64,000 bases of DNA from Candidatus Staskawiczbacteria bacterium RIFCSPHIGHO2_01_FULL_39_25 (GCA_001820095.1 MHOO01000008.1:8597-72596), one strand, 5' to 3'; counted from the stretch's first letter, positions 6,554-41,764 are shown. Translations and numbers: made by a program. Notes: generated from the sequence alone by a model not told the origin.

Positions 6554-8272
6554 TCAAGATTGGTGCCACGAGGCATCAATGATTTTTTCGGGGAATTTTC
6601 GGGAAGTTTCTTGGAAAAACTTGCAAGAAGTCTTGTGTACCATGGCGGCATGCTGGCGGGTAAGGTAGGCTTGTATGGAATCCTCTGGCTGTGGCGAACA
6701 GCATTTGGCAAAATTTACCATCATGCCTTTTTGGCCGGCAAGGTACACCTCTTTTGGTTTTCGTATGGGGGCTGCTGGCTCCGGCTTTTTCGGAACACCG
6801 AATATTTTACTCTTTACAAACGAGGGAACGGAAAAAATCGGTGTAATAATTGCGGAAGTCAGTTTTCTAATATGCGACCTCGCAATACTCGTTTTAACAA
6901 ATTTCAGCCAATCATAAGAAGGCTTTTTCTTTTCACTGGTAATAATCTCTACGACATCGCCGTTGGTTAGCGATTGGGAAAGGGGTATGATTTTTCCGCC
7001 AATTTTTGCCGATTCGCAATGGTCTCCGATTTCTGAATGCAAAGCATACGCGAAATCAATGGGTGTTGACCCTTTAGGCAGGGCAATGACGTCGCCCTTG
7101 GGAGTGAAGGTAAAAATCTGGTTCTCAAAGAAATCAATCTTGAAATCTTTGAAAAAATCCGGAACTTCCTTTGACCATGCAAGGTGGGCGATGTCTTTTT
7201 GCAGTTGCAGCTTTTCTTTATAAGCCCAGTGGGCGCAAATGCCATATTCAGCCTCGCGATGCATTTCTTCTGTTTTAATCTGGATTTCAGAAATTTTTCC
7301 AGGTTCTAAAAATACGGTTGTATGCAAAGATTTGTACCCGTTTTCTTTTGGTTTTGCAATGTAATCTTGAATCTGCCCTGAAATTGGCTGGAAGTGCTTA
7401 TGAATAATGCCTAACACCCTGTAACAAGCGGCAACATCTTTGACGATAACTCGCATGGCAACCAGATCATGGAGCTTTTCAAAATTCATGGCATGGCGCT
7501 CTAATTTTTGGTAGGTGCTCCAGTATGATTTTGCCCGATAGTTAATATCAGAAAATTTTATTTTTTCGTGCGATAATATTCTTTTAAATTTGGGAATAAA
7601 TTTTTTAAGGTATTTGGCCCGTTCTTCATATTTTTCTTCTAAGTGCTCTTGCAGCCAGGCAAACTTTTCGGGAAACAGAAATTCAAATGTCGGGTCTTCA
7701 AGCTTCCTTTTTATTTCCCCTAATCCCAAGCGGTTGGCTATAGGCACGAATATTTCAAGCGTTTCTAGGGCGTAAATTCTTTGCCGTTCTTGGGGCAATG
7801 AAGACAACTTTTGCAGTCCGTCAATGCGGGCAGCCAGCTCTATAATAATGACTCGCAAATCTCCGGCTATGGCAAGAAGCATTTTTCGTGCGTTTTCTAC
7901 TTTTTCTTTCTGTAAGAACACTGCTTCATTGGCGTTGCGGTTGAAAAAGTAATATATCTTATTGAGTTCGGCATTCTTGCTTACAATGTTTGCAATATCC
8001 TGCCCGAATTTCTTTTCAATATCATAGAGCACGGCATTTCGCGACTCTGAAATGTTTTGGTTAGCAGTATCATGTAAAAGCCCCGCGGCTACAGTAGTGG
8101 CGTCTAAACCCATATCGCTTAGTATCACAGCAACGTTTACGGCATGCTCAATATATTCCTCTCCTGTAGATCTTTTCTTGTCACCATACGCATTTTTTGC
8201 AAACTCAAAAACCTCCTCCATAAATTGGGGGTCTTTGCTGTGTTTAATTAATTTATTAAACAAGTTCTGCAT
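6554..8272 (-). CDS. rel: Bifunctional (p)ppGpp synthetase/hydrolase, RelA/SpoT homologue (short, ends after the Cys-rich domain)
   Basis: HD domain (LLHDT), synthetase motifs (YKSLHTTV, EIQIKTEEMH), TGS domain (TPKGDVIALPKGSTPIDFAY), and a C-terminal CC..C motif. Confidence 0.9.
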   Translation of the reverse strand: MQNLFNKLIKHSKDPQFMEEVFEFAKNAYGDKKRSTGEEYIEHAVNVAVILSDMGLDATTVAAGLLHDTANQNISESRNAVLYDIEKKFGQDIANIVSKNAELNKIYYFFNRNANEAVFLQKEKVENARKMLLAIAGDLRVIIIELAARIDGLQKLSSLPQERQRIYALETLEIFVPIANRLGLGEIKRKLEDPTFEFLFPEKFAWLQEHLEEKYEERAKYLKKFIPKFKRILSHEKIKFSDINYRAKSYWSTYQKLERHAMNFEKLHDLVAMRVIVKDVAACYRVLGIIHKHFQPISGQIQDYIAKPKENGYKSLHTTVFLEPGKISEIQIKTEEMHREAEYGICAHWAYKEKLQLQKDIAHLAWSKEVPDFFKDFKIDFFENQIFTFTPKGDVIALPKGSTPIDFAYALHSEIGDHCESAKIGGKIIPLSQSLTNGDVVEIITSEKKKPSYDWLKFVKTSIARSHIRKLTSAIITPIFSVPSFVKSKIFGVPKKPEPAAPIRKPKEVYLAGQKGMMVNFAKCCSPQPEDSIQAYLTRQHAAMVHKTSCKFFQETSRKFPEKIIDASWHQS

Positions 8273-10307
8273 AGTCGCAGTCTTTGTTTGAGCATTTTAC
8301 TTTTTTGCTTTTTGTTTCCACTAAGATGGATTTGCATAGTGGGCAGAATTTATTGACCGGCTTATCCCATAGCGCAAAATCACATGTAGGGTAGGTGTCG
8401 CATCCGTAAAATATCTTGCCTTTCCTGGTTTTTTTAGCCCCCATGTGTCCGGTTTTACACTTTGGGCAAGTAATATCCAATTTTTCTGCCTGCATAGAAG
8501 GGTCTTTTATAATTGATTCGGTATGTTTGCATTCAGGGAAACCCGTGCATGCGTAGAATCTGCCGAACCGCCCCATTTTTTCTATCATGGGTTTTTGGCA
8601 CTTAGGGCAGATTTTGTCGGTTTTAATGTCTAGGTTTTCCTTAGGCACATCTTCATATTTTTCTTTCAGGTTTTTTGCAAACGGGCCATAGAAATCTCTA
8701 ACGGTTTTTTCCCAGGTATCTTTTCCTTCTGCAACTTCGTCTAGCTCTTTTTCCATTTTTGCGGTAAATTCAATATCTACAATTTCTGGAAAATTCTTTA
8801 CTAACATCTCGTTTACAATGACACCCATCTCGGTAGGGAAAAATCTTTTTTGCTCATTTTTTTCAATGTAATGTCTATCTTGAATAGTAGAAAGCGTAGG
8901 GGCATAGGTTGAGGGTCTGCCAATGCCGTGTTTCTCAAGCGCTTTAATCAAGCTTGCTTCATTATACCTTGGCGGGGGCTCGGTAAAATGCTGGCTGGGA
9001 TTGATGTTTACTAATTCCACAATTTCCTTTTCTTTCAATTCCGGCATTTCATTTTCAGTGAATTTCATGGGGTATACCTTCAAGAAGCCGTCAAATTTTA
9101 AAATCTGCCCGTTGGCGCCGAAGGTATATTCGTTGGCATTAATTTCAACCGAAGTTGCGTTAAAAACCGCAGAAACCATTTGGCTGGCAATGAACCGCTG
9201 CCATATTAACGTGTACAATTTCAGCTTTGCGGCATCTAAGTTGTTTTTTAATAATTCGGGAGCTTGTTGGGCATAGGTTGGGCGGATGGCCTCGTGGGCT
9301 TCTTGCGCTCCCTTGCCTGCCTTGTACCGTTTTATTTGAGCATAATTTTTTCCAAATGAATCTGTGATGAATTTTTCAGCGTCTGCCAGTGATTGTTGTG
9401 ATAAATTTAATGAATCGGTCCTATGATAGGTGATATGCCCCTCTTCATATAACTTTTGCGCCACTGACATGGTCATTTTTGCGGAATACCCGAATTTATT
9501 GGCTGCGGTCTGCTGAAGCGTGCTGGTAGTAAATGGCGGCAAAGGGTTTTTCCTAGTTTCTTTTTTTTCTACACTCGCTATGTTATATTCTGCCTGTTCT
9601 AAATTTTTTAAAATAGCATCGGCTTCCTCTTTATTTTTAATTGCTAATTTATCAATCGTTTTGCCGTCTTTCTTAATTAAATTTGCTTGAAAGTCTTGGT
9701 TATTGTTTTTTGCTCCTTGTTTTTTCAATAAAGCCATGATTTGCCAATATTCCTGCGCCACGAATTTTTTGATTTCTTCCTCCCGTTCTACCACTAATCT
9801 AACTGCTACTGATTGTACGCGGCCGGCTGAAAGGCCCTTAGCTACCTTTTTCCATAAAAAAGGCGAAATCTTATACCCTACGATTCTATCCAAAATTCTC
9901 CTGGCTTGCTGGGCATCTACCAAACTCATATCAATTTTTCCGGGAGATTGTAACGCATGATCAATGGCTGTTTTCGTTATTTCATGGAATACAATTCTTT
10001 TTGGATTTTTTAGCCCTAAAGCTTCCGCCAAGTGCCATGAAATTGATTCTCCCTCGCGGTCTTGGTCAGTTGCCAAAATCACTTCATCGGCGGCTTTGGC
10101 GTCTTTCTTTAATTCGGCAATCACTTTTTTCGCTTTTGGCGGTATTACATATTTGGGCTCAAAGTTTTTTTCTACGTCAATTCCAAAATCCCTTTTTGGC
10201 AGATCCCTTACATGCCCAAAAGACGCAACTACCTTGTAGTTTTTTCCTAAGAATTTACTGATAGTACGGCTTTTTGTGGGTGACTCAACTATAATTAACG
10301 ACTGCAT
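8256..10307 (-). CDS. topA: DNA topoisomerase I with C-terminal zinc ribbons
   Basis: Toprim N-terminus (IVESPTK), active-site HITYHRTDS, and several CxxC..CxxC fingers. Confidence 0.95.
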   Translation of the reverse strand: MQSLIIVESPTKSRTISKFLGKNYKVVASFGHVRDLPKRDFGIDVEKNFEPKYVIPPKAKKVIAELKKDAKAADEVILATDQDREGESISWHLAEALGLKNPKRIVFHEITKTAIDHALQSPGKIDMSLVDAQQARRILDRIVGYKISPFLWKKVAKGLSAGRVQSVAVRLVVEREEEIKKFVAQEYWQIMALLKKQGAKNNNQDFQANLIKKDGKTIDKLAIKNKEEADAILKNLEQAEYNIASVEKKETRKNPLPPFTTSTLQQTAANKFGYSAKMTMSVAQKLYEEGHITYHRTDSLNLSQQSLADAEKFITDSFGKNYAQIKRYKAGKGAQEAHEAIRPTYAQQAPELLKNNLDAAKLKLYTLIWQRFIASQMVSAVFNATSVEINANEYTFGANGQILKFDGFLKVYPMKFTENEMPELKEKEIVELVNINPSQHFTEPPPRYNEASLIKALEKHGIGRPSTYAPTLSTIQDRHYIEKNEQKRFFPTEMGVIVNEMLVKNFPEIVDIEFTAKMEKELDEVAEGKDTWEKTVRDFYGPFAKNLKEKYEDVPKENLDIKTDKICPKCQKPMIEKMGRFGRFYACTGFPECKHTESIIKDPSMQAEKLDITCPKCKTGHMGAKKTRKGKIFYGCDTYPTCDFALWDKPVNKFCPLCKSILVETKSKKVKCSNKDCDYAELV

Positions 10308-11364: not shown

Positions 11365-11402
11365 AGTCTTACAAAACCTACGGCCGTAGGTTTTGTAAGA
11401 CT
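11365..11402. repeat. Family-A palindromic element, copy 2
   Basis: AGTCTTACAAAACCTACGG/CCGTAGGTTTTGTAAGACT, a perfect 19+19 palindrome. Confidence 0.9.
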
Positions 11403-11403
11403 G

Positions 11404-11931
11404 TTACATTTCTTCAATTAAAAATATTTTAACAAATTCATCTAAATTGTACATTTGTAATAATTTTTCTGTTTTATCTGAAACATCGTAAGGGGTTATC
11501 CAGACACTTTGCTGGAACATTTTATATCCCAAATTATGTAACACACTTCTTAATAGGTCTCTTGATTTTCTATATTTTTCTGGAACGTCAAAAATAAGCA
11601 TCGCCCATTTACCATCATCTCGCTTTTTCTTTCCCTCGATAATAAAGCTTGCTTTCAGCACTTTATTTAGTCCTTCCTTGGTGAGCATGACTGCCATATT
11701 GCCTTCCAAATTTTTTATTCTTATATAATTTTTCCTTTTTGCATAATTTACTAAGTTGCTAAATGCTTTTTTGTTTTTGTCTTTTCTATATTTATCAAAA
11801 ACTGGATTTTTAATGCCATGCCAGGAATTATACATAGTTGGTCTTTTAGTTAGAAAAGCCACAATATCGCCTGTTTTATCTAGGATATTGTAAAGATCCC
11901 ATAAAAATTTATCAGTAACGGGAGGCTGCAT
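11404..11931 (-). CDS. PaaX-family winged-helix protein (small, 175 aa)
   Basis: Core W-x-ML-I-FDVPE-x5-R-x-LLR-x2-L-x3-GY-x5-SVWITP matches the PaaX-type W..FDIPE..R..LR..L..GF..WI.P signature. A WH-like segment precedes it. Confidence 0.6.
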   Translation of the reverse strand: MQPPVTDKFLWDLYNILDKTGDIVAFLTKRPTMYNSWHGIKNPVFDKYRKDKNKKAFSNLVNYAKRKNYIRIKNLEGNMAVMLTKEGLNKVLKASFIIEGKKKRDDGKWAMLIFDVPEKYRKSRDLLRSVLHNLGYKMFQQSVWITPYDVSDKTEKLLQMYNLDEFVKIFLIEEM

Positions 11932-11943
11932 AGTCTTGTGATG

Positions 11944-11980
11944 GTCTTACAAAACCGACGGCCGTAGGTTTTGTAAGACT
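11944..11980. repeat. Family-A palindromic element, copy 3
   Basis: GTCTTACAAAACCGACGG/CCGTAGGTTTTGTAAGAC with one mismatch. Confidence 0.9.
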
Positions 11981-13332: not shown

Positions 13333-15271
13333 ATTGTCTCATTTTTTCTACGGCATCCGCCAGCATTTGGCAGTATAAATTTAACCCTATTTTATTGATT
13401 GAGCCAGACTGTTCTTTTCCTAAAATATTGCCAGCTCCCCGTAGTTCCAAGTCTTTGATGGCAATTTGGTACCCAGCTCCTAATTCTTTTGCCTGCGCCA
13501 GCGTTTTTAACCGTTCTTTTGCTAATGGGGTTAGTTTTTTAGGATAAAATAAGTAGGCAAAACTTTTTACGTGGGACCTGCCCACGCGGCCTCGTATTTG
13601 ATAGGCTTGGGAAAGTCCTAATCTTGAAGCATCTTCTATGATAATGGTATTTACATTGGGCAAATCAATTCCATTTTCAATAATCGTGGTTGCCACCAGC
13701 ACTTTTGTTTTTCCTTTCTGGAAATTGTCCATTATGTTTACTATTTCCTTTTCAGGCATTCTTCCGTGAATGCAAGAAAACGTAACATGGGGTATTAATT
13801 TTTTTAATTTTTCTTTGGTTCTTTCTATCGTTTCAACCCGATTATGCAAAAAATAAACCTGGCCTTCTCTTGCTAATTCAGCACGAATTGCTTCTTGAAT
13901 GGCATTTTTATTATAGGGAAGGATTTGTGTATGAATCGCCGTTCTCCCCGTGGGCGGGGTTTGCATCAAGCTTATATTTTTAAAAGAAGAGAGCGCTAAG
14001 TAGATAGTTCTTGGAATTGGGGTTGCCGAAAGGCTTAGCACATCCAATGAAGGCCTTGCCTGCCGTAATTTTTCTTTTTGCTTTACCCCGAAACGCTGTT
14101 CGTCATCAATAATTAAAAGTTGTAAGTTTTTAAATTCAATGTCTTTTGATAAAATCCGATGGGTGCCTATGACTACGTCAATGGTTCCCGTTTGCAGCTG
14201 ATGCAATATTTTTTTCTGTTCTTTTTTTGTTTGCAATCTTGAGATTATTGCTATTTTGACGGGAAGTTTTTCAAACCGTTTTTTAAAATTATTGGAATGC
14301 TGGTTGGCTAAAATGGTGGTAGGGCATATGACGGCAACTTGGTAATTATTTGATACGGCCAACAAAGAACTTCTTATGGCTATTTCTGTTTTTCCAAAAC
14401 CTACATCTCCGCAGACGATTCTATCCATAGGTTTTTCGCCCTGCAAATCCTTTTTTATATCTTCAATGGCTTGTATTTGGTCGGGTGTTTCTTGATGCAT
14501 AAACCCAGAAGCTAACTGGGATTCTAATTCTTTATCAATAGCGTAGGGCTTGCGTGTAACAATTTCTTTTTGACTGTAAAGCGCGAGGAGTTCTTTGGCT
14601 AGCTTTTCTACATTTTCTTTAATGTGCCTTTTTGTCCTTTGCCATAAGGAGGATCCCAGTCGTGAAATAGCAGGGTCGGTAAAGCCCACATACCGTGAAA
14701 GCTTTCTCTCTAATCCAACGGGTACATACAACTTATCTTCTTTTGCATACTCTAACACATAGTATTCTCCGTTATTAATGTTGTTGATTCCAATAAATTT
14801 TCCCACTCCATGGTCCAGGTGAACCAAGTAATCTCCTGATGCGATATTTTTTATGTCAGAAAATAGTTTTTCTGATGTTAACTTTTTCTTTAAAATCTCT
14901 TTTGCTTTTTCCTCATCGGCAACGGTTATATCCAAAAGCACAATGCTTTCAATAATATTCCCTAAAAAATCCAAACGGATTGCTTGATTCATGTTGATAG
15001 GGAACACTTCAATAATGCCTCCTGTTTGCGAGAATTCTCCAGGATCTGAAATCTTGAACACCTTTTCATATCCCATGATGTCAAGTTTCCTTAACAGCTC
15101 TGAACTGCTATAGCGGTCGCTCTGTTTTAAAAATATGATATTATCCTGAAAAAACTGCTGGGTTTTGCTTGATTGTAAAATTTCTTGTAAATTTTCCTGA
15201 AACCAAAAAACCTGCTTTTCTAAAAAGTAGGGAGTGATGCTAGCAATAAGAATATTATCAATTATAGGCAT
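13331..15271 (-). CDS. mfd: Transcription-repair coupling factor, compact form (646 aa)
   Basis: CarD/RID-like LVHLDHGVGKF. Helicase motifs GDVGFGKTE, DDEQRFG and RGRVGR. It lies downstream of pth, as in many bacteria. Confidence 0.85.
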   Translation of the reverse strand: MPIIDNILIASITPYFLEKQVFWFQENLQEILQSSKTQQFFQDNIIFLKQSDRYSSSELLRKLDIMGYEKVFKISDPGEFSQTGGIIEVFPINMNQAIRLDFLGNIIESIVLLDITVADEEKAKEILKKKLTSEKLFSDIKNIASGDYLVHLDHGVGKFIGINNINNGEYYVLEYAKEDKLYVPVGLERKLSRYVGFTDPAISRLGSSLWQRTKRHIKENVEKLAKELLALYSQKEIVTRKPYAIDKELESQLASGFMHQETPDQIQAIEDIKKDLQGEKPMDRIVCGDVGFGKTEIAIRSSLLAVSNNYQVAVICPTTILANQHSNNFKKRFEKLPVKIAIISRLQTKKEQKKILHQLQTGTIDVVIGTHRILSKDIEFKNLQLLIIDDEQRFGVKQKEKLRQARPSLDVLSLSATPIPRTIYLALSSFKNISLMQTPPTGRTAIHTQILPYNKNAIQEAIRAELAREGQVYFLHNRVETIERTKEKLKKLIPHVTFSCIHGRMPEKEIVNIMDNFQKGKTKVLVATTIIENGIDLPNVNTIIIEDASRLGLSQAYQIRGRVGRSHVKSFAYLFYPKKLTPLAKERLKTLAQAKELGAGYQIAIKDLELRGAGNILGKEQSGSINKIGLNLYCQMLADAVEKMRQ

Positions 15272-15809
15272 TCATCGTCTTTTCTAGTCCGTTTTTAATG
15301 AAAAAATCAAGGGCTTCGGCGGTTTTTGCAATAGCGGAATTAATCATTTCCTGTTCCTCATTGGTAAATTTTTTGATGACAAATGTTTCCACTGATTTAG
15401 GTTTGCCTTTTTCCGGGCAGATGCCAATCTTAAATCGTATAAAATCTTTGGTTCCTAATATTTCAATAATAGAATTTACCCCTTTGTGGCCGCCTGATCC
15501 GCTATCTTGTGCAATTTTCAATTTTCCTATTGGCAAATCTATATCATCATGGACGATAACGACATCTGACATTTGACCTTTAACATTTGACACAATTTTT
15601 TTGACGGCGAGTCCAGATTCGTTCATGAAAGTTTGCGGTTTTGCTAAAATAACATTGTTTTTTTCTGAAATCAGCGAGGCATATTTTTTTGATAATTCAA
15701 AATCGGGAAAATTGTTTTTTTGGGCAAAAAAATCAATGGCCGTAAAGCCTGCATTGTGTCGCGTGTTTTTAAATTTTTCTCCGGGATTTCCCATCCCTAC
15801 AATTATCAT
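15258..15809 (-). CDS. pth: Peptidyl-tRNA hydrolase
   Basis: VGMGNPG, TRHNAGF and HDDIDLP motifs. Confidence 0.95.
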   Translation of the reverse strand: MIIVGMGNPGEKFKNTRHNAGFTAIDFFAQKNNFPDFELSKKYASLISEKNNVILAKPQTFMNESGLAVKKIVSNVKGQMSDVVIVHDDIDLPIGKLKIAQDSGSGGHKGVNSIIEILGTKDFIRFKIGICPEKGKPKSVETFVIKKFTNEEQEMINSAIAKTAEALDFFIKNGLEKTMNAYN

Positions 15810-15818
15810 ATTGCAGTT

Positions 15819-15859
15819 ATTACTTTGAATTACGAAAGCATTTCGTAATTCAAAGTAAT
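15819..15859. promoter_or_regulatory. Perfect 19-bp stem / 3-nt loop hairpin abutting the pth start codon
   Basis: ATTACTTTGAATTACGAAA-gca-TTTCGTAATTCAAAGTAAT. Confidence 0.6.
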
Positions 15860-18949: not shown

Positions 18950-19030
18950 ACGACATTTAACAATTGACAATTAACAGTTGACAAAGCGAATCGTCGGATG
19001 TCAAAGGTTAAATGTCAATTGTCAATTGTT

Positions 19031-19528
19031 ATGATAAAACAACAAATTCAGCTGGATGCTAACAGTGCTTTAAAATCAGGCGACCAATTCTCTTGCGGAG
19101 TTTTGCGTATGGCTTTGTCGGCAATTAATGCCAAAGAAAAAGAAAAAAGGTATAAAGTTTCCAAGGAAGCGCCGGAATTAGAAGAAGAAGCTTTGCTAAA
19201 AAAATCAGAATTATCCGATGACGAAATTATCGGTGTTATTTCTTCTGAAATAAAAAAGAGAAAAGATGCCATTGCCTTATATGAAAAAGGCAGTCGGCAG
19301 GAATTAGCGGATAAAGAACAAAAAGAGGTTCAAATTTTGCAGAAATACCTGCCAGAACAGTTATCAGAAGAAGAATTAAAAAAGTTAATTGAAGAAAGTA
19401 TTAGTAAAACAGGCGCTCAAGAAATAAAAGACATGGGCAAGATTATGGCGGATCTGATGCCAAAAATAAAAGGAAAAGCAGATAATTCCCAGGTGAGCAG
19501 AGTAATAAAAGAACTTTTGTCTGGATAA
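19031..19528 (+). CDS. GatB/YqeY domain protein
   Basis: MIKQQIQLDANSALKSGD..LRMALSAINAKEKE..LQKYLPEQLSEEEL pattern. I chose the ATG at 19031 because the upstream part of the ORF runs through an intergenic hairpin. Confidence 0.75.
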   Translation: MIKQQIQLDANSALKSGDQFSCGVLRMALSAINAKEKEKRYKVSKEAPELEEEALLKKSELSDDEIIGVISSEIKKRKDAIALYEKGSRQELADKEQKEVQILQKYLPEQLSEEELKKLIEESISKTGAQEIKDMGKIMADLMPKIKGKADNSQVSRVIKELLSG

Positions 19529-21123: not shown

Positions 21124-21248
21124 ATCATAAACTAGAATCTTGAATCTGGTATCTGGTATCTTGAATTGAATTTTGAATTTAGAATCGGCAATTCTTTATT
21201 CTGTATTCTATTCTAGATTCAAGATACGAGATTCTAGATTCAAGCGTA

Positions 21249-23488: not shown

Positions 23489-25036
23489 ATGACTCCGTCT
23501 AAAGCGCTCTTTTATTTTTGCCTTTCTTTCATCATAGGAATATTTTTTGCTTCACTTATTGAAATTCCCCAGGTTATTTCTTGGGGTTTTTTGTTGACGG
23601 GAATTCTCATGATTTTTACTCCATTCGTGATTCGTGTAAATTCATCAGCCATTCGTGAAAGTTCGTTAATTACGTTCAACGGCTACCACGCCGTGGTAGC
23701 CGTTGAACGTAAGTTAATTATTGGATTTTGCATATTATTTTTAGTGGTGGGTGTTGCCAGGTTCCAAATTGCTGAATTTGCCATTGCCAATGACCAGTTA
23801 GTTAAACTAAACGATACGCCGGATAATATTGCGCTTACAGGCCGAATCATTGATGCGCCCGATATTCGGGATACATCCCAGAAATTAAAAATTAAAGTTG
23901 ATAGAACTAAGAGCATGGTGCTGGTTACCACTCAACGTTTTCCCGAATACCACTATTTAGATGAGGTAAAATTGACCGGAAAGTTGAAGAAGCCGCCCGA
24001 ATTTGAGGATTTTAATTATAGAAATTATTTATTAAAAGATGGAATCTATTCTATTATGAGTTTTCCAAAGATTGAATTAACTTCACAAGAACATCATTAC
24101 ACAGTGGTTACTTTTTTATATAGCAGGATTTTATTGCTAAAAGAAGTATTCAGAACATCAATCAGCCAAAACTTTTCTCCTCCGCAAAGCGCTCTTTTAG
24201 AGGGCATTATGCTGGGGAACACTTCTGGCATGAGCCGCGAGGTAAAAGATAAAATGTCAGCTACCGGCTTAACCCACCTTACGGCAATTTCCGGTTCTAA
24301 CATCGTAATTCTAAGCTTAATTTTACTTCATGTTTTGCTCTTTTTAGGATTTTGGCGCGGCCAGGCTTTTTATATTACCGTGGCATTCATCTGGATTTAT
24401 ATTATTATGACCGCTCTCCCTCCTTCGGGCATACGGGCTGCTATCATGGCAACTATTTTCTTATTAGGGCAAAAATTAGGAAGGCAAAATACCAATTCAA
24501 GGGTTATTGTGATAGCGGCTGCATTGATGACCGTGCAAAATCCTCTGCTTTTAATATATGATGTGGGTTTTCAGCTTTCTTTTCTGGCTTTATTGGGAAT
24601 TATACATTTAAAACCAATTACCGATGCCTTATTCATTAAAGTTAAGTATAAAGAAGCAAAGAATTTGTTAGCTATAGTTTCTATGACGCTCGCTGCCCAA
24701 ATCTATACCGCTCCTATTATTATGTATAACTTCAAGCAAATTTCTTTGGTCGCCCCTATTACCAATCTTTTAGTGATCCCGGCTATTACCTGGATAATGG
24801 TTACGGGGTTTATTGCAATTGTTTTCGGGATTTTTTCAACTACATTGGGATTCATTTTTTCTCTGCCTTGCTGGATACTGCTGACATACTTTTTAAAAAT
24901 AATGGATGTTTTTTACCAGCCGTGGTCCGTTATAGCCATGCAGAATGTTTCTTGGATTTGGGTTGCCTTTTATTATTTAATCCTCGCATGGCTGGTGTGG
25001 CTTCTTCATAAAAGACAACAGCCGAAATTTTTATAG
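23489..25036 (+). CDS. comEC: ComEC/Rec2 DNA-uptake channel (no metallo-beta-lactamase domain)
   Basis: N-terminal TMs, an OB-like DUF4131 region and a competence domain (GLTHLTAISGSNI), 515 aa in total. Confidence 0.8.
   Translation: MTPSKALFYFCLSFIIGIFFASLIEIPQVISWGFLLTGILMIFTPFVIRVNSSAIRESSLITFNGYHAVVAVERKLIIGFCILFLVVGVARFQIAEFAIANDQLVKLNDTPDNIALTGRIIDAPDIRDTSQKLKIKVDRTKSMVLVTTQRFPEYHYLDEVKLTGKLKKPPEFEDFNYRNYLLKDGIYSIMSFPKIELTSQEHHYTVVTFLYSRILLLKEVFRTSISQNFSPPQSALLEGIMLGNTSGMSREVKDKMSATGLTHLTAISGSNIVILSLILLHVLLFLGFWRGQAFYITVAFIWIYIIMTALPPSGIRAAIMATIFLLGQKLGRQNTNSRVIVIAAALMTVQNPLLLIYDVGFQLSFLALLGIIHLKPITDALFIKVKYKEAKNLLAIVSMTLAAQIYTAPIIMYNFKQISLVAPITNLLVIPAITWIMVTGFIAIVFGIFSTTLGFIFSLPCWILLTYFLKIMDVFYQPWSVIAMQNVSWIWVAFYYLILAWLVWLLHKRQQPKFL
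23670..23712. repeat. Family-B palindromic element, copy 1 (in frame inside comEC), flanked by direct repeat GTTAA
   Basis: TTACGTTCAACGGCTACCACG-c-CGTGGTAGCCGTTGAACGTAA (21+1+21). GTTAA occurs at 23665-23669 and 23713-23717. Confidence 0.9.
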
Positions 25037-29180: not shown

Positions 29181-29213
29181 TTGAACGGCTACCACGCCGT
29201 GGTAGCCGTTCAA
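29181..29213. repeat. Family-B palindromic element, copy 2 (intergenic)
   Basis: TTGAACGGCTACCACG-c-CGTGGTAGCCGTTCAA. The outer stem is TTGAAC/GTTCAA, versus TTCAAC/GTTGAA in copy 1. Confidence 0.9.
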
Positions 29214-35146: not shown

Positions 35147-38100
35147 ATGAGAAAGTTTAGTTTTATTGTATTTATCACCCTACTTTTGTTGCCTGTTTTT
35201 GCTTTTGCTGATTGTAGTAATAAGGGTTATACGATTATCTATGTTAATGGAATTTTTACAGATAAAAATATAGCAAGATTAGATAAAGATTCTCTTAAAG
35301 AAAAATTTAAAAAAATTACTAAAAATGATACCGTAAATTTTATTAATGGTTATAACTCTTCTCATTTAGGTGGCATCGGTGATCTCTTAAAATCCACCAT
35401 TCAAGCATATAAAGGAGGAGCTTTGGACTATGATCTTGAAAATATACTAACTCAAATACACGGAGAGCTTGCTACCAGGAAAGTGTTGCTGGTAGGGCAC
35501 TCGCAAGGCACGTTCTATACTAATGCGGCATATGACTATTTAATAAACAATGGAGTCCCAAAGGACTCCATTTCTGTTTATAACGTAGCTACTCCCGCAG
35601 ATGAGGTTGCCGGCGATGGGAATTATGTAACCTCAAGCAATGATAAAGTGATTAATTCAATTGTAAAAGAGATTACAGCCCTTGGATTTGCCAGAAAACC
35701 CTTATCGGCAAATATTGATATTCCTCTTTTGCCCGAAGAAGCAAATGATCCTTTTGCCGGCCATTCTTTAAGCGGAGTATATTTGCAAGGCGCTCCGGAA
35801 CGGGTGATTGGCGACATCCAAAAAGGGCTGGAAAATTTAGCCGACAGTAATGATGGCGCACCATCAGAAGGATGTTTTGATAAGCCAAAAACCACCTTAA
35901 TCCATCAATCCAAAGATGTTGTCTTTAAAGTGGCCGATAAGTCTATAGCTACAGCCCAAGCCGCATATAATTTTGGGCAATCTGCCAAAGAAAAAGTATA
36001 TTTGGCAATCAGTAATTTTGGGGAAAATATTGCTGCCAAAGTAGTCAAAATACTGGATAATTATAATCTTTTTGAGGCTTCAATAAGCTTGGCAGGCAAG
36101 CCATCTGGTAACCAAAATTTACCGAGCGTAGATTTAACCAGCACTCAAAATACGCAAAATATTCAAGATAATAATTCAGGCACCCAGATTATCCAAAATG
36201 AAAATTTGGACGAGCTTTTGGATAATTCAAATGAAACACAAGAAGAAATAGACGATATTTTAGAAAGAATTGATATTCTACAAGCGCAATTAATAAAACA
36301 AAATAGCGTAAGCCTGCCAAATACTGGAAACAATGCGTATACTGATAAAAATTCACCAGTTAACGAAGATAATGAAGCTAAAGAAGCAGAACAATCTAGC
36401 GTATCACTTCCAACGCAAAATGTAGTAACAGCAGCATATGTCGCCAGTAGCGCAAGCAGCGCTGCAAATGTCATATACCCTAAAATTTTAATTTCAGAAG
36501 TGCAAATTGAAGGCTTAGATGATGCTAAACAGGAATTTGTGGAATTGTATAATCCCAACAGCCAAGAGGTTAGCTTAACAGATTGGTATTTGCAGAGAAA
36601 GACAAAAACGGGGTCTAGTTATGCAACATTTGCCTCAAATACCTTATTTTCTGGCAAGAAGATACGCGCCAATAGCTACTTTTTAATTGCCCGGGAAGGT
36701 TCAAGTTTTGCAAGCCAGGCGGATATTATCATAGATAACCCGCTGACCGAAGATAATAGTTTAATTTTAAAAAATCCCGGCGGGGAAATTGCTGACAAAG
36801 TAGGCTGGGGCCAAGCCCAAGAGTATGAATTATTACCGTTTCAAAATCCAATTCCCGGAAAAAGCATTGGCAGGCAATTGATTCTGCTTGTAGAGCAGGA
36901 TACTGATAATAATTCAATAGACTTTTTAATTAATAGCCCGACTCCAAAGGCAAATAATACTGCTTATGTGGCTCCGCTTATTATCACTGATAATACTACT
37001 ACTATTGAAGCAAAAGATGAAAAAGCGCCCCAAGCGGTATTTACAGTTGATGAAATCCAAAAGAATATTGCTTTTACCATACATTTTGAAATTACCGATC
37101 CTGTTGGCACCGTAACGCCGTCAGGCATTTATAGCTATATATTTAGATGGAAATTAGAAGGAGGCAGCTGGCAAGAAGAGCCCTCAACGCATGTTAATAA
37201 TAATCCGTCAGTCTTTTCAGGGGCCAGAGATTTCATAGGAGACGATGAAAAAAGTTATTACTTTCAAGTAAAAGCAAAGGACCTAGCCGGAAATGAATCA
37301 GACTGGCAGTCGGAAACGCCAGTAGCAGTAAAAATTAGCATCTCAAAGAAAATTTTAATTAACGAAATTCAAACCGCGGGAGTTACTACCAAGGATGAAT
37401 TTATTGAATTGTATAATCCCAATGGAGTAGATATAAATTTGGCAGGTTTTAGTTTAAAAAAGAAAACTTCCGGCGGCGCGGAAAGCAATTTGGTAAGCGT
37501 AAGCGCCTTTTTAGGCACAATAAAAGCTTTTGGATATTTTCTGGTTGCTCCAGAGGCAGATGATAACGGCACTGAAAATTATACGGGTTTGGCAGCCCCT
37601 GATATATACTATTCTGGAAAAACTTTTTCCATAGCTGCAAATAATACGGTTTTGCTTTATGATAATGCTGGCGCTCTCTTAGATAAAGTTGGTTTTGGAA
37701 CAGCAAAAGACTTTGAAACAATTGCCGCCCCAAACCCTGAAACTGGCAAAAGTATTGAGAGGAAAAAACTGGGAGCAGATACCGACAATAACCAGAACGA
37801 CTTTAAAATTTCTGATGAAATTACTCCCAAGGGAACTTTTCCAAAATCTGTTATAGAAGATGCCACTGATTATGCCAATAATCCAAGCAGCAATGTGCCG
37901 GGGGCTCCTGCGTATAGTTTCTTAATTAAGTGGAAAAGCGCAGCTGCTAACATAGATTTTTTCCAGGTTCAATATAAATTAGGCGAGACAGACTGGAAAG
38001 ACTGGCTGCCATCAACGCCAAAAACAGAAGAATATTTTCAGGGAAATTACTCGCTATTTAATGATAATGTTTACTATTTTAGGGTGGCAGCTACCGATAC

Positions 38101-40288
38101 CGATGGCAATAAAGGGCCGTGGGCAGAAATTAAAATTGATGTTACAAATCCCGTGGTCATTAATGAAGTTGGCTATGCGGGCACTAACGCTGATGAAAAA
38201 GACCAATGGATAGAGCTTTATAATAAGTCAGATAAAGATATTGACTTAACAAATTGGAAAATTGTTTCTGGTTCGCTCAACATTAATCTTAAAGGCACTA
38301 TTCTATCTAAGGGATATTTTATTTTGGAAGCAAGCGATGACGATGCATTATCTGATGTGTTAGCTGATCAAATTTTTATAGAACCCTTAGGTAAAAACCG
38401 TTTATATTTACGCGATAAAAACAATAGATATGTGGATGAATTTTACACGCCGCCAACCGGCTTGGAGGTCAGCAGTTTTATTAAAGACAGCAATCATTAT
38501 TCAATAGAAAGAGTCAGCGCTTATTCTTTTGGCATGCATGAGAAAAATTGGAAAATTAATAATGGCAATATTATGAACGGAAAAGATAGGGACGAAGGCC
38601 AGGTTTATGGAACTCCGGGAAGCAAAAACAGCGTTAACCAACTATATACCTACTACGCTTCAAGTTTTATTCAGGACACGGTTTTAAAAAAAGATTTAAG
38701 CCCGTATCTATTTGAAGGAATGAACGCGCATGTATTTACAGATATTACGTTGTCAATTGAGCCGGGAGTTATAATCAAGTTTTACCATAACCAGTCAAAC
38801 CTAACTATCCAGGGGACTTTAAAAGCCGTAGGCACCGAAACAGAAAAAATTGTTTTTACCTCTTTTCATGATGATGAATACGGCGGAGACAGCGATAAAA
38901 CCGCGGATCCCTTATTGCCTAAACCCGCCGATTGGCTGGGGTTGCGCTTTACCAAAGATGGCAACAATTCGGAACTAGAAAATGTTATGGTACGCTATGG
39001 AGGGGCGGTAATAGGTTCTTCTCCTATTGAATGGGGCAACGCAGTATGGGTTGAGCATACTTCTATTACCCTGAAAGATTCTATTATTGAAAACAATAAA
39101 AACAGGGGACTGCGGCTTATTAATTCTAATTCTATAGTGGATTCTATATCATTTTTAAACCAAAATACGCATGATTATCCCCCTGGACTTAATGAATCAA
39201 AAGCAATATACATTCAAGGCGGAAGCCCGGAAATCAAAAATTCTTACTTTGAAAATAATTCTTTTGGCATGTATGTGGCCTCTTTCTTTGATGAGATAAA
39301 CAATAAAGATATTTTGTCTCTCCCTTCATTAGAGGGCAATAACTTTGTTAAGAATGAATACCCTATTTGGTTTGAAAAGTTTTCATATGCTTCGCTTGCA
39401 AACAATACGGCAACAGACAATACCTTTAATGCCATTGTTCTCCCATCTGAATTTTCCCAGGATACAACCCTAAAGCCAGACTTGCCCTATCTGGTAAAGA
39501 ATATCACTAAAATTCCAGAGAATGTAACGCTTATTTTAGATCCTGGCGCCATCATCAGCTTCCAGAGCAATTTTTCAGGGTTGCAAATTGAGGGGACATT
39601 ACAGTCGATTGGCTTGCCGGATAACAAAATTATTTTCAGGCCATACTATTATGATAAAGATTCCATACTTCCTGGCAGCTGGCTGGGTTTGCGTTTTACA
39701 AAAAGCAGCAAAAATTCAGTGTTAGATAACGTAGATATTTCTTATGGGGGCGCTTTTCATGGCAATCCAGGCAATGAAGATTTTACCGCGGCGATAAAAG
39801 TTGAAGAATCTGCTATTTCATTAAAAAACGCTACCCTGCGTAATAATGCCAATAATGGAATTTGGCTGGTTAATTCAGCATCAGTGATAGATTCAGTAAC
39901 ATTTTTAGAAAACTCGCAATCGGCTCTTGCTCTTGAAGCTAAAGCACTCTATGTCCAAGGTGGAAACCCAGTCATTAAAAATTCTCATTTTAGAAATAAT
40001 ACCTACGGAATTTACATGGCTGACTTGAGCGGCCCGAATGGCAACATACCGGCTTTGCCGGATTATTCAGACAATAACCAATTTGACGGAAGCATCGCCG
40101 CAGATATTTTCCCGCTTCCTCTTCCTCTGCCTCCAGCCATAGAACCAGAGCCTGAATCCTTACTAGAACCCGATGCTGAATTGCCACCGGAACCTGTTCT
40201 TGATCCTGCTCTGGAACCAACCCCGGAACCAGAACCGGAACCAGAACCGGAACCGGAACCGGAACCAGACTTTCTCAATGTACCTTAA
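35147..40288 (+). CDS. Giant secreted multidomain protein (1713 aa): alpha/beta-hydrolase (GHSQG) + 3x lamin-tail domain + FN3-like modules + 2x parallel beta-helix module + Pro/Glu tail
   Basis: Signal peptide. LLVGHSQGT nucleophile elbow. LTD signatures ILISEVQ..EFVELYNP (nt ~36482), ILINEIQ..EFIELYNP (~37350) and VVINEVG..QWIELYN (~38151). A duplicated WLGLRFTK..YGG beta-helix module (~38640-39420 and ~39420-40080). (CCRGAA)n encodes PEPEPE at 40223-40264. Confidence 0.8.
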   Translation: MRKFSFIVFITLLLLPVFAFADCSNKGYTIIYVNGIFTDKNIARLDKDSLKEKFKKITKNDTVNFINGYNSSHLGGIGDLLKSTIQAYKGGALDYDLENILTQIHGELATRKVLLVGHSQGTFYTNAAYDYLINNGVPKDSISVYNVATPADEVAGDGNYVTSSNDKVINSIVKEITALGFARKPLSANIDIPLLPEEANDPFAGHSLSGVYLQGAPERVIGDIQKGLENLADSNDGAPSEGCFDKPKTTLIHQSKDVVFKVADKSIATAQAAYNFGQSAKEKVYLAISNFGENIAAKVVKILDNYNLFEASISLAGKPSGNQNLPSVDLTSTQNTQNIQDNNSGTQIIQNENLDELLDNSNETQEEIDDILERIDILQAQLIKQNSVSLPNTGNNAYTDKNSPVNEDNEAKEAEQSSVSLPTQNVVTAAYVASSASSAANVIYPKILISEVQIEGLDDAKQEFVELYNPNSQEVSLTDWYLQRKTKTGSSYATFASNTLFSGKKIRANSYFLIAREGSSFASQADIIIDNPLTEDNSLILKNPGGEIADKVGWGQAQEYELLPFQNPIPGKSIGRQLILLVEQDTDNNSIDFLINSPTPKANNTAYVAPLIITDNTTTIEAKDEKAPQAVFTVDEIQKNIAFTIHFEITDPVGTVTPSGIYSYIFRWKLEGGSWQEEPSTHVNNNPSVFSGARDFIGDDEKSYYFQVKAKDLAGNESDWQSETPVAVKISISKKILINEIQTAGVTTKDEFIELYNPNGVDINLAGFSLKKKTSGGAESNLVSVSAFLGTIKAFGYFLVAPEADDNGTENYTGLAAPDIYYSGKTFSIAANNTVLLYDNAGALLDKVGFGTAKDFETIAAPNPETGKSIERKKLGADTDNNQNDFKISDEITPKGTFPKSVIEDATDYANNPSSNVPGAPAYSFLIKWKSAAANIDFFQVQYKLGETDWKDWLPSTPKTEEYFQGNYSLFNDNVYYFRVAATDTDGNKGPWAEIKIDVTNPVVINEVGYAGTNADEKDQWIELYNKSDKDIDLTNWKIVSGSLNINLKGTILSKGYFILEASDDDALSDVLADQIFIEPLGKNRLYLRDKNNRYVDEFYTPPTGLEVSSFIKDSNHYSIERVSAYSFGMHEKNWKINNGNIMNGKDRDEGQVYGTPGSKNSVNQLYTYYASSFIQDTVLKKDLSPYLFEGMNAHVFTDITLSIEPGVIIKFYHNQSNLTIQGTLKAVGTETEKIVFTSFHDDEYGGDSDKTADPLLPKPADWLGLRFTKDGNNSELENVMVRYGGAVIGSSPIEWGNAVWVEHTSITLKDSIIENNKNRGLRLINSNSIVDSISFLNQNTHDYPPGLNESKAIYIQGGSPEIKNSYFENNSFGMYVASFFDEINNKDILSLPSLEGNNFVKNEYPIWFEKFSYASLANNTATDNTFNAIVLPSEFSQDTTLKPDLPYLVKNITKIPENVTLILDPGAIISFQSNFSGLQIEGTLQSIGLPDNKIIFRPYYYDKDSILPGSWLGLRFTKSSKNSVLDNVDISYGGAFHGNPGNEDFTAAIKVEESAISLKNATLRNNANNGIWLVNSASVIDSVTFLENSQSALALEAKALYVQGGNPVIKNSHFRNNTYGIYMADLSGPNGNIPALPDYSDNNQFDGSIAADIFPLPLPLPPAIEPEPESLLEPDAELPPEPVLDPALEPTPEPEPEPEPEPEPEPDFLNVP

Positions 40289-40318
40289 ACTATTATTACG
40301 ATATTAACTCTAAAAAAA

Positions 40319-40352
40319 GTACCTTGAAACAACGATCGTTGTTTCAAGGTAC
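40319..40352. terminator. Family-C perfect 34-nt palindrome; bidirectional terminator
   Basis: GTACCTTGAAACAACGA/TCGTTGTTTCAAGGTAC with A7 before and T5 after. Confidence 0.8.
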
Positions 40353-40372
40353 TTTTTGCTATAGATTATACG

Positions 40373-40939
40373 TTATAAATTAAAGTGCCTTTTTAGTCTA
40401 AGGTCATCATGTATTGTATCTGCAATAATAATATTAATAAAAGAACTTATATTAAAAAATTCACATAAAAACTGAATTTCTTTCTCGCAAGGATAAGGAC
40501 AAACCAAAACACTTTTTTGTAATTGATAAAAATTTAATTTTTGTAATTTTTGTCTTAATGCATCCCTGCCATATCTTCTTCTTTCTGGGATATCGAAGGT
40601 TATAATACGCCATTTTTTATCCCAAGTGTTTTGTTTTTTGATCTCTAGCCTTTCGATGTTAATTTCTTTAACTTTCCTTTTCCCCTTTTCTGTAATTTGA
40701 ACTAAACAATCTCCATTTTCTTTTTCCTTTAAGATAATAAAATTATTTCTTTTTAATCCCCTCAAAGATCTGGCTATTTTTTCTTCATTGATTTTATTTT
40801 TATTATATCTCTTATTTTTTATAATTGCTTTTGCTATGTTTGTTAAAAAATACGGAGACGTAGAAGCAACAATAACGATTCCGGTTAAAGCAATAGTTAA
40901 AAGAATTTCTTTAGTTATGCTATTGTATTGCCCTTTCAT
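40373..40939 (-). CDS. PaaX-family winged-helix protein, second paralogue (188 aa, N-terminal hydrophobic helix)
   Basis: W-x-K-K-W-RIITFDIPE-x5-R-DALRQKL-x3-NF-x5-SVLVCPYP matches the same signature as 11404..11931. Confidence 0.55.
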   Translation of the reverse strand: MKGQYNSITKEILLTIALTGIVIVASTSPYFLTNIAKAIIKNKRYNKNKINEEKIARSLRGLKRNNFIILKEKENGDCLVQITEKGKRKVKEINIERLEIKKQNTWDKKWRIITFDIPERRRYGRDALRQKLQKLNFYQLQKSVLVCPYPCEKEIQFLCEFFNISSFINIIIADTIHDDLRLKRHFNL

Positions 40940-40961
40940 TCATATAGCATATACCAAAAAT

Positions 40962-40995
40962 GACGCTTGAACAAACGATTGTGGTTTAAAGGTAT
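40962..40995. repeat. Family-C element, degenerate copy (25/34 identical to 40319-40352 by hand alignment)
   Basis: GACGCTTGAACAAACGATTGTGGTTTAAAGGTAT. Confidence 0.6.
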
Positions 40996-41000
40996 ATTTT

Positions 41001-41080
41001 ATATCTACATAGGTCTATATATGTCTCCATATGTTTCTATGTGCTCATATGCGCCTATACAGATATCCACAGGTGATATT
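41001..41080. repeat. Array of ~8 degenerate 10-bp tandem repeats in helical phase
   Basis: atatctacat aggtctatat atgtctccat atgtttctat gtgctcatat gcgcctatac agatatccac aggtgatatt. Confidence 0.7.
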
Positions 41081-41108: not shown

Positions 41109-41156
41109 TTGACTTCTAAAATATTTTTTGTTAATTTAACCCATTAGGTTAAATTA
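41109..41156 (+). promoter_or_regulatory. Promoter (TTGACT-17 nt-TGtTAATTT) overlapped by a 10-bp inverted repeat TAATTTAACC-n5-GGTTAAATTA that ends at the ATG
   Basis: -35 at 41109-41114, extended -10 at 41129-41137, IR at 41132-41156, start codon at 41156. Confidence 0.55.
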
Positions 41157-41764
41157 TGGAAGACAATTTTGTAAAAATAACCAATGCGGTTTATAAGCTT
41201 TTAGATTTCTTTCCGGATTCAGATCCGTTGAAAAACAAGGCAAAAGAAAAAGCATTGGCAATATTGGATAACTTGACGTTGATTTCCAATAATCATGGGT
41301 GGGTTTCTTTGCAAAAAGAGAAAGCTTCAGCACAATTACTAGACGACATAGGGATGCTGGAAAATTACCTTGCTATTGGCAAGCATCAAGGTTGGATAGG
41401 CCATATAAATTTTCTTATCATTGTCAAAGAGTATCGCCAGATTATGAATGAGATTAGCCCTCCAAAAGGATCCCTAAGAAGAAATATCCAGATTGCCTCC
41501 GCTATTGCAAAAGACGTTCCAGAAGTTCTTAACAATGCTCCAAAAAGCATTGAAATTAAAGATGATGCATCGGGGTATTCAGAAAGGCAAACAAAAATAT
41601 TGAAAATACTCTCTGAAAGAGAGAAAGCCCAGGTTTCAGACTTTATAAAAGAGCTACCAGATATTACTAAAAGAACAATTAGGAGAGACTTAGATGATCT
41701 GCTAAAAAGGGGCAAAGTAATAAGGATAGGAGAATGGAACCAAGTTTTCTACAAAACTAGATAG
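41156..41764 (+). CDS. Transcription regulator with C-terminal DeoR-type HTH, helical N-terminal domain
   Basis: C-terminus RQTKILKILSEREKAQVSDFIKELPDITKRTIRRDLDDLLKRGKV fits the DeoR HTH pattern (..TIRRDL..L). Confidence 0.6.
   Translation: MEDNFVKITNAVYKLLDFFPDSDPLKNKAKEKALAILDNLTLISNNHGWVSLQKEKASAQLLDDIGMLENYLAIGKHQGWIGHINFLIIVKEYRQIMNEISPPKGSLRRNIQIASAIAKDVPEVLNNAPKSIEIKDDASGYSERQTKILKILSEREKAQVSDFIKELPDITKRTIRRDLDDLLKRGKVIRIGEWNQVFYKTR

Follow-up and report, generated by a model that had tools for sequence, protein, structure and literature searches.

Among the described systems closest to the gene considered here are a repressor that controls its own promoter and a family of proteins associated with their own repeats. 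The operator of Escherichia coli PaaX is a 39-bp inverted site, TGATTC-N27-GAATCA; by binding it, the protein keeps RNA polymerase off its own promoter and so represses it (reviewed in PMC9493321). In the systems formed by repetitive extragenic palindromes (REPs), their hairpin-forming doublets (REPINs) and REP-associated tyrosine transposases (RAYTs), each gene has a private repeat family, is flanked by its own repeats and is inherited vertically (PMC3116915; PMC3337134; 10.1101/2021.07.10.451892). The subject of this work is a gene for a 188-aa protein, here designated mini-PaaX, in a 64-kb stretch of AT-rich DNA (38.6% G+C; hereafter, the window) from Candidatus Staskawiczbacteria bacterium RIFCSPHIGHO2_01_FULL_39_25 (GCA_001820095.1; MHOO01000008.1:8597-72596). 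The gene is bracketed by two copies of one palindrome (Table 1). This layout of palindrome, mini-PaaX gene and palindrome is general in the family, and it has apparently gone undescribed so far: a search on PaaX, Cas2-like proteins, palindromes, Patescibacteria and CGATCG yielded no description of the architecture in the searchable literature, outside which most subscription journals lie. Judging from sequence, we consider it moderately probable that the palindromes are the binding sites of the protein encoded between them, with the upstream copy acting as an autorepressing operator and the downstream copy serving, in the window, as both a second site and a bidirectional terminator.

The earlier note on this DNA, made from the window alone, had described a perfect 34-nt palindrome 3′ of the mini-PaaX gene and a degenerate copy in front of it, and both stand up to analysis. 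The perfect palindrome lies between convergent open reading frames (ORFs), the mini-PaaX ORF (stop at 40373) and a 1713-aa ORF for a lamin-tail domain (LTD)/beta-helix protein (stop at 40288), with 30 nt separating the latter stop from the palindrome, and its A7 and T5 flanks lengthen the inverted repeat to 22+22 nt (40314-40357). The upstream copy sits 22 nt 5′ of the ATG at 40939 and resembles the perfect palindrome more closely than any other non-self sequence in the window does (25/34; the runner-up reaches 21); the half-sites of the two copies are in the same register. The best match in 300 first-order Markov simulations of 64 kb never exceeded 23, and 20,000 shuffles of the 216-nt AT-rich upstream spacer never gave a match above 22, so that the upstream copy scores above everything obtained from random AT-rich sequence. 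Its palindromy has nonetheless been lost (9/18 pairs), and the bracket of this gene is one perfect palindrome and one decayed homologous relic. On the sense strand, the RNA fold of the upstream copy is no better than that of shuffled sequence (z = -0.35), whereas the downstream copy folds strongly on both strands (-27.4 kcal/mol, z = -9.6) and has the form of a terminator, with a 17-bp stem followed by T5 on the plus strand and T7 on the minus strand. The designation of the pair as a hairpin family is therefore premature, given an upstream copy that sits in predicted promoter DNA and cannot fold in the window.

Beyond the window, three homologues that are 53-73% identical and lie in unrelated neighbourhoods (rplJ/rplL, PGM/TrpRS and EF-Ts) each show a similar pair of ~36-nt palindromes around the gene. 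Among 81 homologous genes from other Patescibacteria, identified with hidden Markov models, palindromes with at least 12/18 pairs are found on both sides in 63 cases, against a background of 12.6% per 180-nt control window, and a threshold of at least 13/18 pairs retains 48 of the 81 (background 3.9%), bearing out the expectation that further PaaX-like genes would be bracketed. In a comparison of the two flanks of every crudely called gene on 80 further loci, the best 30-nt match scored a median of 25/30 around mini-PaaX genes (n = 72; 54 reach at least 24) and of 19/30 around control genes (n = 578; 12 reach at least 24). Roughly 81 of the ~100 strong zero-loop palindromes in 796 kb flank mini-PaaX genes, a count that overstates specificity because the loci were chosen for containing the gene. 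The arms are common to both copies of a locus, and differ between loci and between the paralogues of one genome. The downstream copy is retained next to co-directional genes (33/43) as well as next to convergent ones (24/37), which argues that it is part of the module and not merely the operator of a neighbour. A third copy is present in 5 of 51 loci; it brackets the neighbouring operon, whose products are often large secreted proteins. Locus L127 carries two mini-PaaX paralogues 4 kb apart (3445-4065 and 7850-8422), with brackets at 3468/4092 and 7786/8436.

The family is very large. It comprises 5,936 clusters at 50% identity with E <= 1e-3, 3,371 of them with E <= 1e-10, and more than 588 relatives occur among species-representative genomes, the best 80 of which carry, with few exceptions, labels of Patescibacteria lineages, and one genome often has several. 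Database labels for these proteins read 'Cas2', 'PaaX-related' or 'hypothetical', and the viral contigs of IMG/VR contain no relatives. The homologues adjoin ribosomal protein, tRNA synthetase and other housekeeping genes, and no paa genes lie near the gene of the window. Synteny is mixed: some orthologues, 67-89% identical, have common neighbours on both sides, and some are syntenic across genera; other pairs are not syntenic, including one from the same genome that is 79% identical. In syntenic locus pairs, the orientation of the gene relative to its neighbours is kept in 11 of 12.

The anatomy of the site, derived from 78 palindromes, comprises arms of ~17-19 nt around a centre RCGA/TCGY, with C at position 3 in 97% of half-sites. 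CGATCG is the dominant centre, and CTATCG, CTATAG, CGGTCG, CCATGG and CGGCCG occur as variants. Pairing dips at positions 5-7, within a less constrained zone at positions 5-8, which is also where the upstream and downstream copies of one locus differ most; positions 1-4 and the outer arms diverge least. Of the differences between the two copies of a locus, 103 are single changes; the double changes comprise 40 that are compensated and 22 others. The median distance from the upstream stem to the start codon is 26 nt; from the stop codon to the downstream stem it is 16 nt (0-20 nt), with some stems overlapping the stop, and the centres of the two sites are 578-821 bp apart (median 650). With a mean of only 2.9 T in the 8 nt past the stem, and at least 5 T in 6 of 39 downstream copies, the palindromes are not in general canonical terminators, the downstream copy of the window being an exception to this lack of a T-run. 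Helical phasing was considered as a sign of DNA looping and set aside, there being no periodicity at 10-11.3 bp and the measure being uninformative at such distances. A link to DnaA boxes was likewise dropped (15 found in the window vs. 17.5 expected; motif absent from 84 of 87 loci). A DnaA-box-like TTATCCACAGG directly follows two palindrome copies in locus L066 (5570-5579 and 9764-9773), where it is probably part of a longer repeat unit, and ATATCCACAGG is present at 41063-41073 in the window.

The position of the upstream copy relative to predicted promoter elements bears directly on its role. In the window, a predicted -35 hexamer falls within its gene-proximal arm and a predicted -10 hexamer lies close to the start codon (Table 1). 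By these elements, the upstream copy would be promoter DNA, positioned like an autoregulatory operator, and the distance of 6 nt between the -10 box and the ATG suggests a leaderless mRNA. Many loci have a -35-like (TTGACA-like) hexamer in the gene-proximal arm of the upstream copy. Of the 24 loci with a good promoter match, 10 have 5-7 nt between the end of the -10 box and the start codon. Three loci (L012, L014 and L016) carry a perfect TTGACA in the upstream copy, with the symmetric sequence instead in the downstream copy. Furthermore, N-terminal-domain identity predicts how similar the outer arms of two loci are (standardised beta 0.265), which Cas2-like-domain identity does not (0.011). 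Since locus pairs are not independent, this co-variation is taken as support for, and not proof of, a binding-site reading. The possibility that the arms are instead set by the insertion site, through target duplication, is disfavoured by the fact that arm similarity rises with protein identity even in non-syntenic pairs; locus L029 has arms in common with the non-syntenic L021 and not with the syntenic L027.

The protein itself matches PF20803 (PaaX_M, 'central Cas2-like domain') at 76.2 bits (cut-off 24), and falls just below the cut-off of PF09827 (CRISPR_Cas2; 21.2 vs. 23.8) and below that of TIGR01573 (17.4 vs. 24.5). The PaaX equivalog model of NCBIfam, TIGR02277, gives 32.4 bits against a cut-off of 264.55, aligning residues 52-175 to PaaX positions 34-153, and the N-terminal PaaX winged helix (PF07848) does not match the protein at E <= 1. 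In the AlphaFold model, residues 100-188 have predicted local distance difference test (pLDDT) values of 83-90. The best Foldseek matches in the PDB are Cas2 structures (5zyf, 8ia4, 2ivy and 9h6t; E ~0.01, probability ~1), with the E. coli PaaX structure 8a39 at rank 27; by sequence, nothing significant was found in the PDB. The C-terminal domain can hence be assigned with confidence as a Cas2-like ferredoxin domain. The N-terminal half of the model has the H-H-H-beta-beta order typical of a winged helix at a pLDDT of only ~50, and the N-terminal third to half of the protein is probably a winged helix. In alignment with E. coli PaaX, the protein keeps Cas2-like FDIPE...QKSV motifs that are missing from the E. 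coli protein, and ends ~40 aa past the Cas2-like domain, without the C-terminal 140 aa of PaaX. The hydrophobic N-terminal segment pointed out previously is indeed present and aligns with the first helix region of the family; it may be a membrane anchor or a core helix.

In the operator reading, both palindromes would be cognate recognition sites of the protein encoded between them, and the locus one instance of a family-wide module. The protein would dimerise via its Cas2-like domain, as PaaX does via its middle domain, and its winged-helix domains would read the outer arms, ~9-17 bp either side of the dyad, with the conserved CGATCG centre as a feature common to the whole family. Because the upstream copy carries the -35 box and the -10 box ends so close to the ATG, binding there would repress the gene's own, probably leaderless, transcription. 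The downstream copy would provide a second site at the 3′ end of the gene and, in the window, also has the form of a bidirectional intrinsic terminator between convergent genes. Binding, dimerisation, repression and termination, as well as any catalytic role of the Cas2-like domain, are features that we infer from the sequence. Several observations weigh against this account. The N-terminal domain, which would contact the arms, is the poorly modelled part of the protein, and the family lacks the effector-binding C-terminal domain of PaaX, so that no signal input is evident for mini-PaaX proteins. In the window, the upstream copy is devoid of symmetry and of part of the core. Three features are left unexplained by a pure operator model: the retention of the downstream copy irrespective of the direction of the next gene, the compensated double changes that keep each copy self-complementary, and the existence of solitary palindromes of this class between convergent genes and in frame within housekeeping genes. 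In addition, gene calls in the scripts were crude longest-ORF calls, most loci were chosen through the protein, and locus pairs are phylogenetically non-independent. The Thermus TTHA0973 site CNAACGNNCGTTNG was considered as a precedent for a PaaX-type operator and dropped, TTHA0973 being a TetR-family protein according to its paper.

A REP/RAYT-like arrangement is a possible but doubtful account, which overlaps with the operator reading and is compatible with autoregulation through the upstream copy. Here, the palindromes would be dispersed elements, mobile or formerly mobile, which mini-PaaX, as their cognate protein, would process or mobilise: its winged helix would recognise the arms, and its Cas2-like domain would act as a nuclease at the CGATCG centre. 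The position of the gene between two copies recalls that of RAYT genes between REPs, and the private palindrome family of each paralogue, the presence of several divergent paralogues per genome and a vertical inheritance that is partly syntenic all fit such a scheme, as do the compensated changes that maintain the self-complementarity of each copy. The motif FD[IV]PE, which contains the Cas2 catalytic Asp, is kept, unlike in E. coli PaaX.

Solo copies also exist. The window contains one, a family-A palindrome (the family of a second paralogue, described below) lying in frame in the Sua5/YrdC gene, where it adds ~13 aa to a loop relative to homologues without an insert, of which there are many. 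The YrdC protein of the window is 100% identical to one from the Candidatus Staskawiczbacteria RIFCSPLOWO2_01_FULL assembly. Different perfect palindromes occupy the same loop elsewhere (L088, 10299-10355; L089, 2455-2486, with a CTATAG centre); among Patescibacteria, this surface loop is a hot spot for perfect palindromes in frame with Sua5/YrdC. Other solos with CGATCG or CGGCCG centres lie in MnmA-like and UvrC-like ORFs, in the intergenic region after fusA and between holA-like and rpsT genes, and those at L017 9421, L033 3600, L047 4831 and L042 8793 have arms unlike the mini-PaaX bracket of the same locus. A reciprocal scan of metagenome contigs with the motif alone (CCTTG-N5-ACGATCGT-N5-CAAGG) gave 38 matches in AT-rich contigs, 12 of which adjoin a mini-PaaX gene; the other 26 comprise 11 between co-directional genes, 6 between convergent genes, only 1 between divergent genes, 1 in an ORF and 7 at contig ends. 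The palindrome family GACCTTGTGACTACGATCGTAGTCACAAGGTC forms a bracket in L127/L134 and recurs as perfect solos 3′ of rpsP, 3′ of mreB and at other loci, amounting to at least five solo loci across metagenomes. Two different CGATCG-centred palindromes 104-108 nt apart, with no mini-PaaX gene between them, were also observed in L098 (4259/4363) and L116 (9657/9765), the arrangement being kept in both related contigs.

Against this account, solos look few, at roughly one per 100 kb in the sequence examined vs. hundreds for REPs, and they could equally be regulatory or terminator sites. The palindrome family of the 188-aa gene (family C) has no further copy in the window, and the metagenome contigs scanned for its core gave no match. 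No catalytic activity is known for any PaaX_M domain, and the search for an HUH/Y1 transposase in the protein returned only the PaaX_M and Cas2 matches, with no conserved His-x-His in the family alignment and no tyrosine-transposase motif. The absence of relatives from viral contigs also argues against it.

An improbable alternative places the function at the RNA level, with the two copies as 5′ and 3′ stem-loops of the mRNA that would serve stability, processing or translational autoregulation by an RNA-binding Cas2-like domain (akin to an RNA recognition motif). Mismatches in the arms are more often G:T than A:C on the sense strand (53 vs. 23, p = 0.0008; 33 vs. 13 in downstream copies), compensated changes are frequent, and the downstream copies, lying so close to the stop codon or overlapping it, must be at least partly transcribed. 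However, the predicted promoter lies within and downstream of the upstream copy, which would hence not be part of the mRNA, and in the window that copy does not fold; no Rfam family matches the palindromes. The G:T excess was set aside as proof of an RNA hairpin and kept as a hint only, being confounded by strand-biased mutation (a C-to-T bias on the non-template strand) and by the constraint of the -35 box.

The hin gene lies between two near-palindromic hix sites, and inverted arms around a 6-bp centre resemble recombinase sites in general. A site-specific recombination cassette of the Hin/hix or integron kind, in which crossover between the palindromes, each built as arm, 6-bp core and arm, would invert or excise the gene segment, could also draw on the third copies that bracket an adjacent operon in some loci. 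We regard it as very unlikely: a Pfam scan and a Foldseek search of the 188-aa protein revealed no recombinase domain, fold or motif, the gene almost always keeps its orientation relative to its neighbours in syntenic pairs, and a mostly symmetric core gives the site no polarity. Least credible of all is the view that the palindromes are ordinary intrinsic terminators, alike by chance or local duplication and unlinked to the gene, which the A7/T5 flanks and convergent setting of the window's downstream copy might suggest, and which is contradicted by the shuffles, by the recurrence of the bracket across unrelated neighbourhoods and by the general lack of a T-run after the stem.

Table 1. Features of the mini-PaaX loci in the window (positions counted from its first nucleotide)
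Feature	Position	Strand	Remarks
Downstream palindrome copy (family C)	40319-40352		Perfect 34-nt palindrome GTACCTTGAAACAACGATCGTTGTTTCAAGGTAC, centre CGATCG
mini-PaaX gene	40373-40939	-	188 aa; PF20803 match, Cas2-like C-terminal domain
Predicted -10 hexamer TATGCT	40946-40951	-	After 17-nt spacer; ends 6 nt before ATG at 40939; predicted from sequence
Upstream palindrome copy (family C)	40962-40995		Decayed homologue, 25/34 identical to 40319-40352; core CGATTG
Predicted -35 hexamer TTGTTC	40969-40974	-	Within gene-proximal arm of upstream copy; predicted from sequence, geometry recurs in homologous loci
Solo family-A palindrome	4276-4313		89% identical to copy at 11366; in frame in Sua5/YrdC gene 3976-4578
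Family-A palindrome, downstream of 175-aa paralogue	11365-11402		Centre CGGCCG, arms unrelated to family C
Paralogue gene	11404-11931	-	175 aa, 32% identical to 188-aa protein; PaaX_M 75.7 bits
Family-A palindrome, upstream of 175-aa paralogue	11944-11979

The window holds a second member of the family, a 175-aa paralogue that passes the NCBIfam cas2 cut-off (27.1 vs. 24.5). According to the earlier note, the same bracket is present at 11365-11980 with an unrelated palindrome, and two family-A palindromes do flank the paralogue gene there. The further claim of a private palindrome family for each paralogue holds in that the arms are locus-specific, in the window and beyond, and requires amendment in that family A also occurs within YrdC.

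A Pfam scan identified the neighbours of the 188-aa gene as the LTD/beta-helix surface protein, a protein with a DeoR-type helix-turn-helix (HTH) and an extracytoplasmic function (ECF) sigma factor. The last two match the setting described before, as does the phased repeat array. The array consists of ~3.5 copies of a 10-nt repeat (consensus TATGTCTACA, 76% identity) at 41000-41051; it has the upstream palindrome copy on one side and, on the other, the promoter region of the divergent DeoR-HTH gene (41156-41764). Nothing similar was noticed in the related loci read. The product of the convergent ORF (35147-40288), predicted to be secreted, combines three lamin-tail domains and beta-helix repeats with a (PE)n tail at its C terminus; large secreted proteins adjoin the palindrome/mini-PaaX module also in L066 and L072. 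Other inverted repeats are scattered over the window. The palindrome TTGAACGGCTACCACG-C-CGTGGTAGCCGTTCAA, whose odd centre differs from CGATCG, represents a further family, with one copy in the ComEC ORF 23489-25036 (23670-23712) and one in an intergenic region (29181-29213), neither adjoining a mini-PaaX gene. The long imperfect intergenic inverted repeats at 18953-19031 and 21139-21244, which are rich in units resembling TTGACAATT and GAATCTGGTATC, have no relation to the CGATCG class, and the only copy in the window of a perfect inverted repeat (19 nt, with a loop of 3 nt) lies at 15819-15859, directly 3′ of the Pth-like ORF 15258-15809.

The mini-PaaX family accounts for a visible share of the few DNA-binding proteins encoded by the tiny genomes of the Patescibacteria. 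Each member appears to have a private 36-40-bp site flanking its gene on either side, and the family may hence offer a protein-to-DNA specificity code with dozens of natural cognate pairs. The bracket rule corrects a Cas2 annotation and would give an initial way into gene regulation in these unculturable organisms. Should the solo and in-frame copies be part of the system, they would point to a second, independent partnership of the REP/RAYT kind, built on a Cas2-like fold and relevant to mobile DNA and to the origin of CRISPR adaptation proteins.

Several known systems show one or more of these features. Insertion sequences of the IS200/IS605 group have a short gene, of ~600-700 bp, bounded by subterminal hairpins that resemble each other, and the mini-PaaX gene is similarly short and bounded by palindromic sequences that are alike. 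It does not, however, encode an HUH transposase, its paralogues within a genome are highly divergent and not identical, and some of its orthologues are syntenic across genera. Rickettsia palindromic elements (RPEs) are ~100-150 nt long. Like the palindrome in YrdC described here, they form in-frame inserts in surface loops of housekeeping proteins (reviewed in PMC10969869); the inserts of the mini-PaaX class differ in measuring ~36-57 nt, in belonging to another phylum and in having a candidate cognate protein. With the Cas2 proteins of CRISPR systems, mini-PaaX shares a Cas2-like C-terminal fold and Cas2-like motifs, and its flanking repeats are palindromic and of CRISPR-repeat size. In mini-PaaX, however, the domain is fused to a probable DNA-binding domain, and the repeats number only two and enclose the gene, at a distance of ~650 bp from each other. 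No cas genes were found among the three ORFs upstream and the one downstream covered by the Pfam scan, and no regularly spaced direct-repeat array is present anywhere in the window.

The resemblance to PaaX extends from protein to site. Both proteins have the PaaX_M middle domain and, in the case of mini-PaaX only probably, a winged-helix-type N-terminus, and the target is an inverted sequence of ~36-40 bp; given the E. coli operator, an inverted site of ~39 bp with distant half-sites is a known PaaX trait, and by analogy a site at the gene's own promoter would imply autorepression. Mini-PaaX differs in its length (188 aa vs. 316 aa), in the lack of the PaaX_C effector domain, in a TIGR02277 score far below the cut-off (32 vs. 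265 bits) and in keeping the Cas2-type FDIPE that is absent from E. coli PaaX. Its site is a full palindrome with a conserved CGATCG centre and a second copy 3′ of the gene, and each of the many paralogues in a genome has arms of its own; no paa genes lie nearby. The REP/REPIN-RAYT systems (REPtrons) provide a parallel for the arrangement as a whole, namely a single-copy gene flanked by its own palindromic repeat of ~35 nt, one repeat family per paralogue, further copies that in some families are dispersed, often at gene 3′ ends, and largely vertical inheritance. They differ in the protein, which is an HUH/Y1 transposase and not a probable winged helix joined to a Cas2-like domain, and in the repeat, where the GTAG/CGTC foot of REPs (PMC3733652) takes the place of the conserved palindrome centre; the mini-PaaX palindromes seem to be of low copy number, some lie in frame inside genes, and their mobility is conjectural. 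We tentatively suggest that the Patescibacteria harbour previously unrecognised repeat-protein systems in which a winged-helix-Cas2-like protein maintains, spreads or cuts its own CGATCG-centred palindromes, an analogue of REPIN-RAYT on a Cas2 fold which, if real, might be informative on the roles of Cas2-like proteins before or outside CRISPR.

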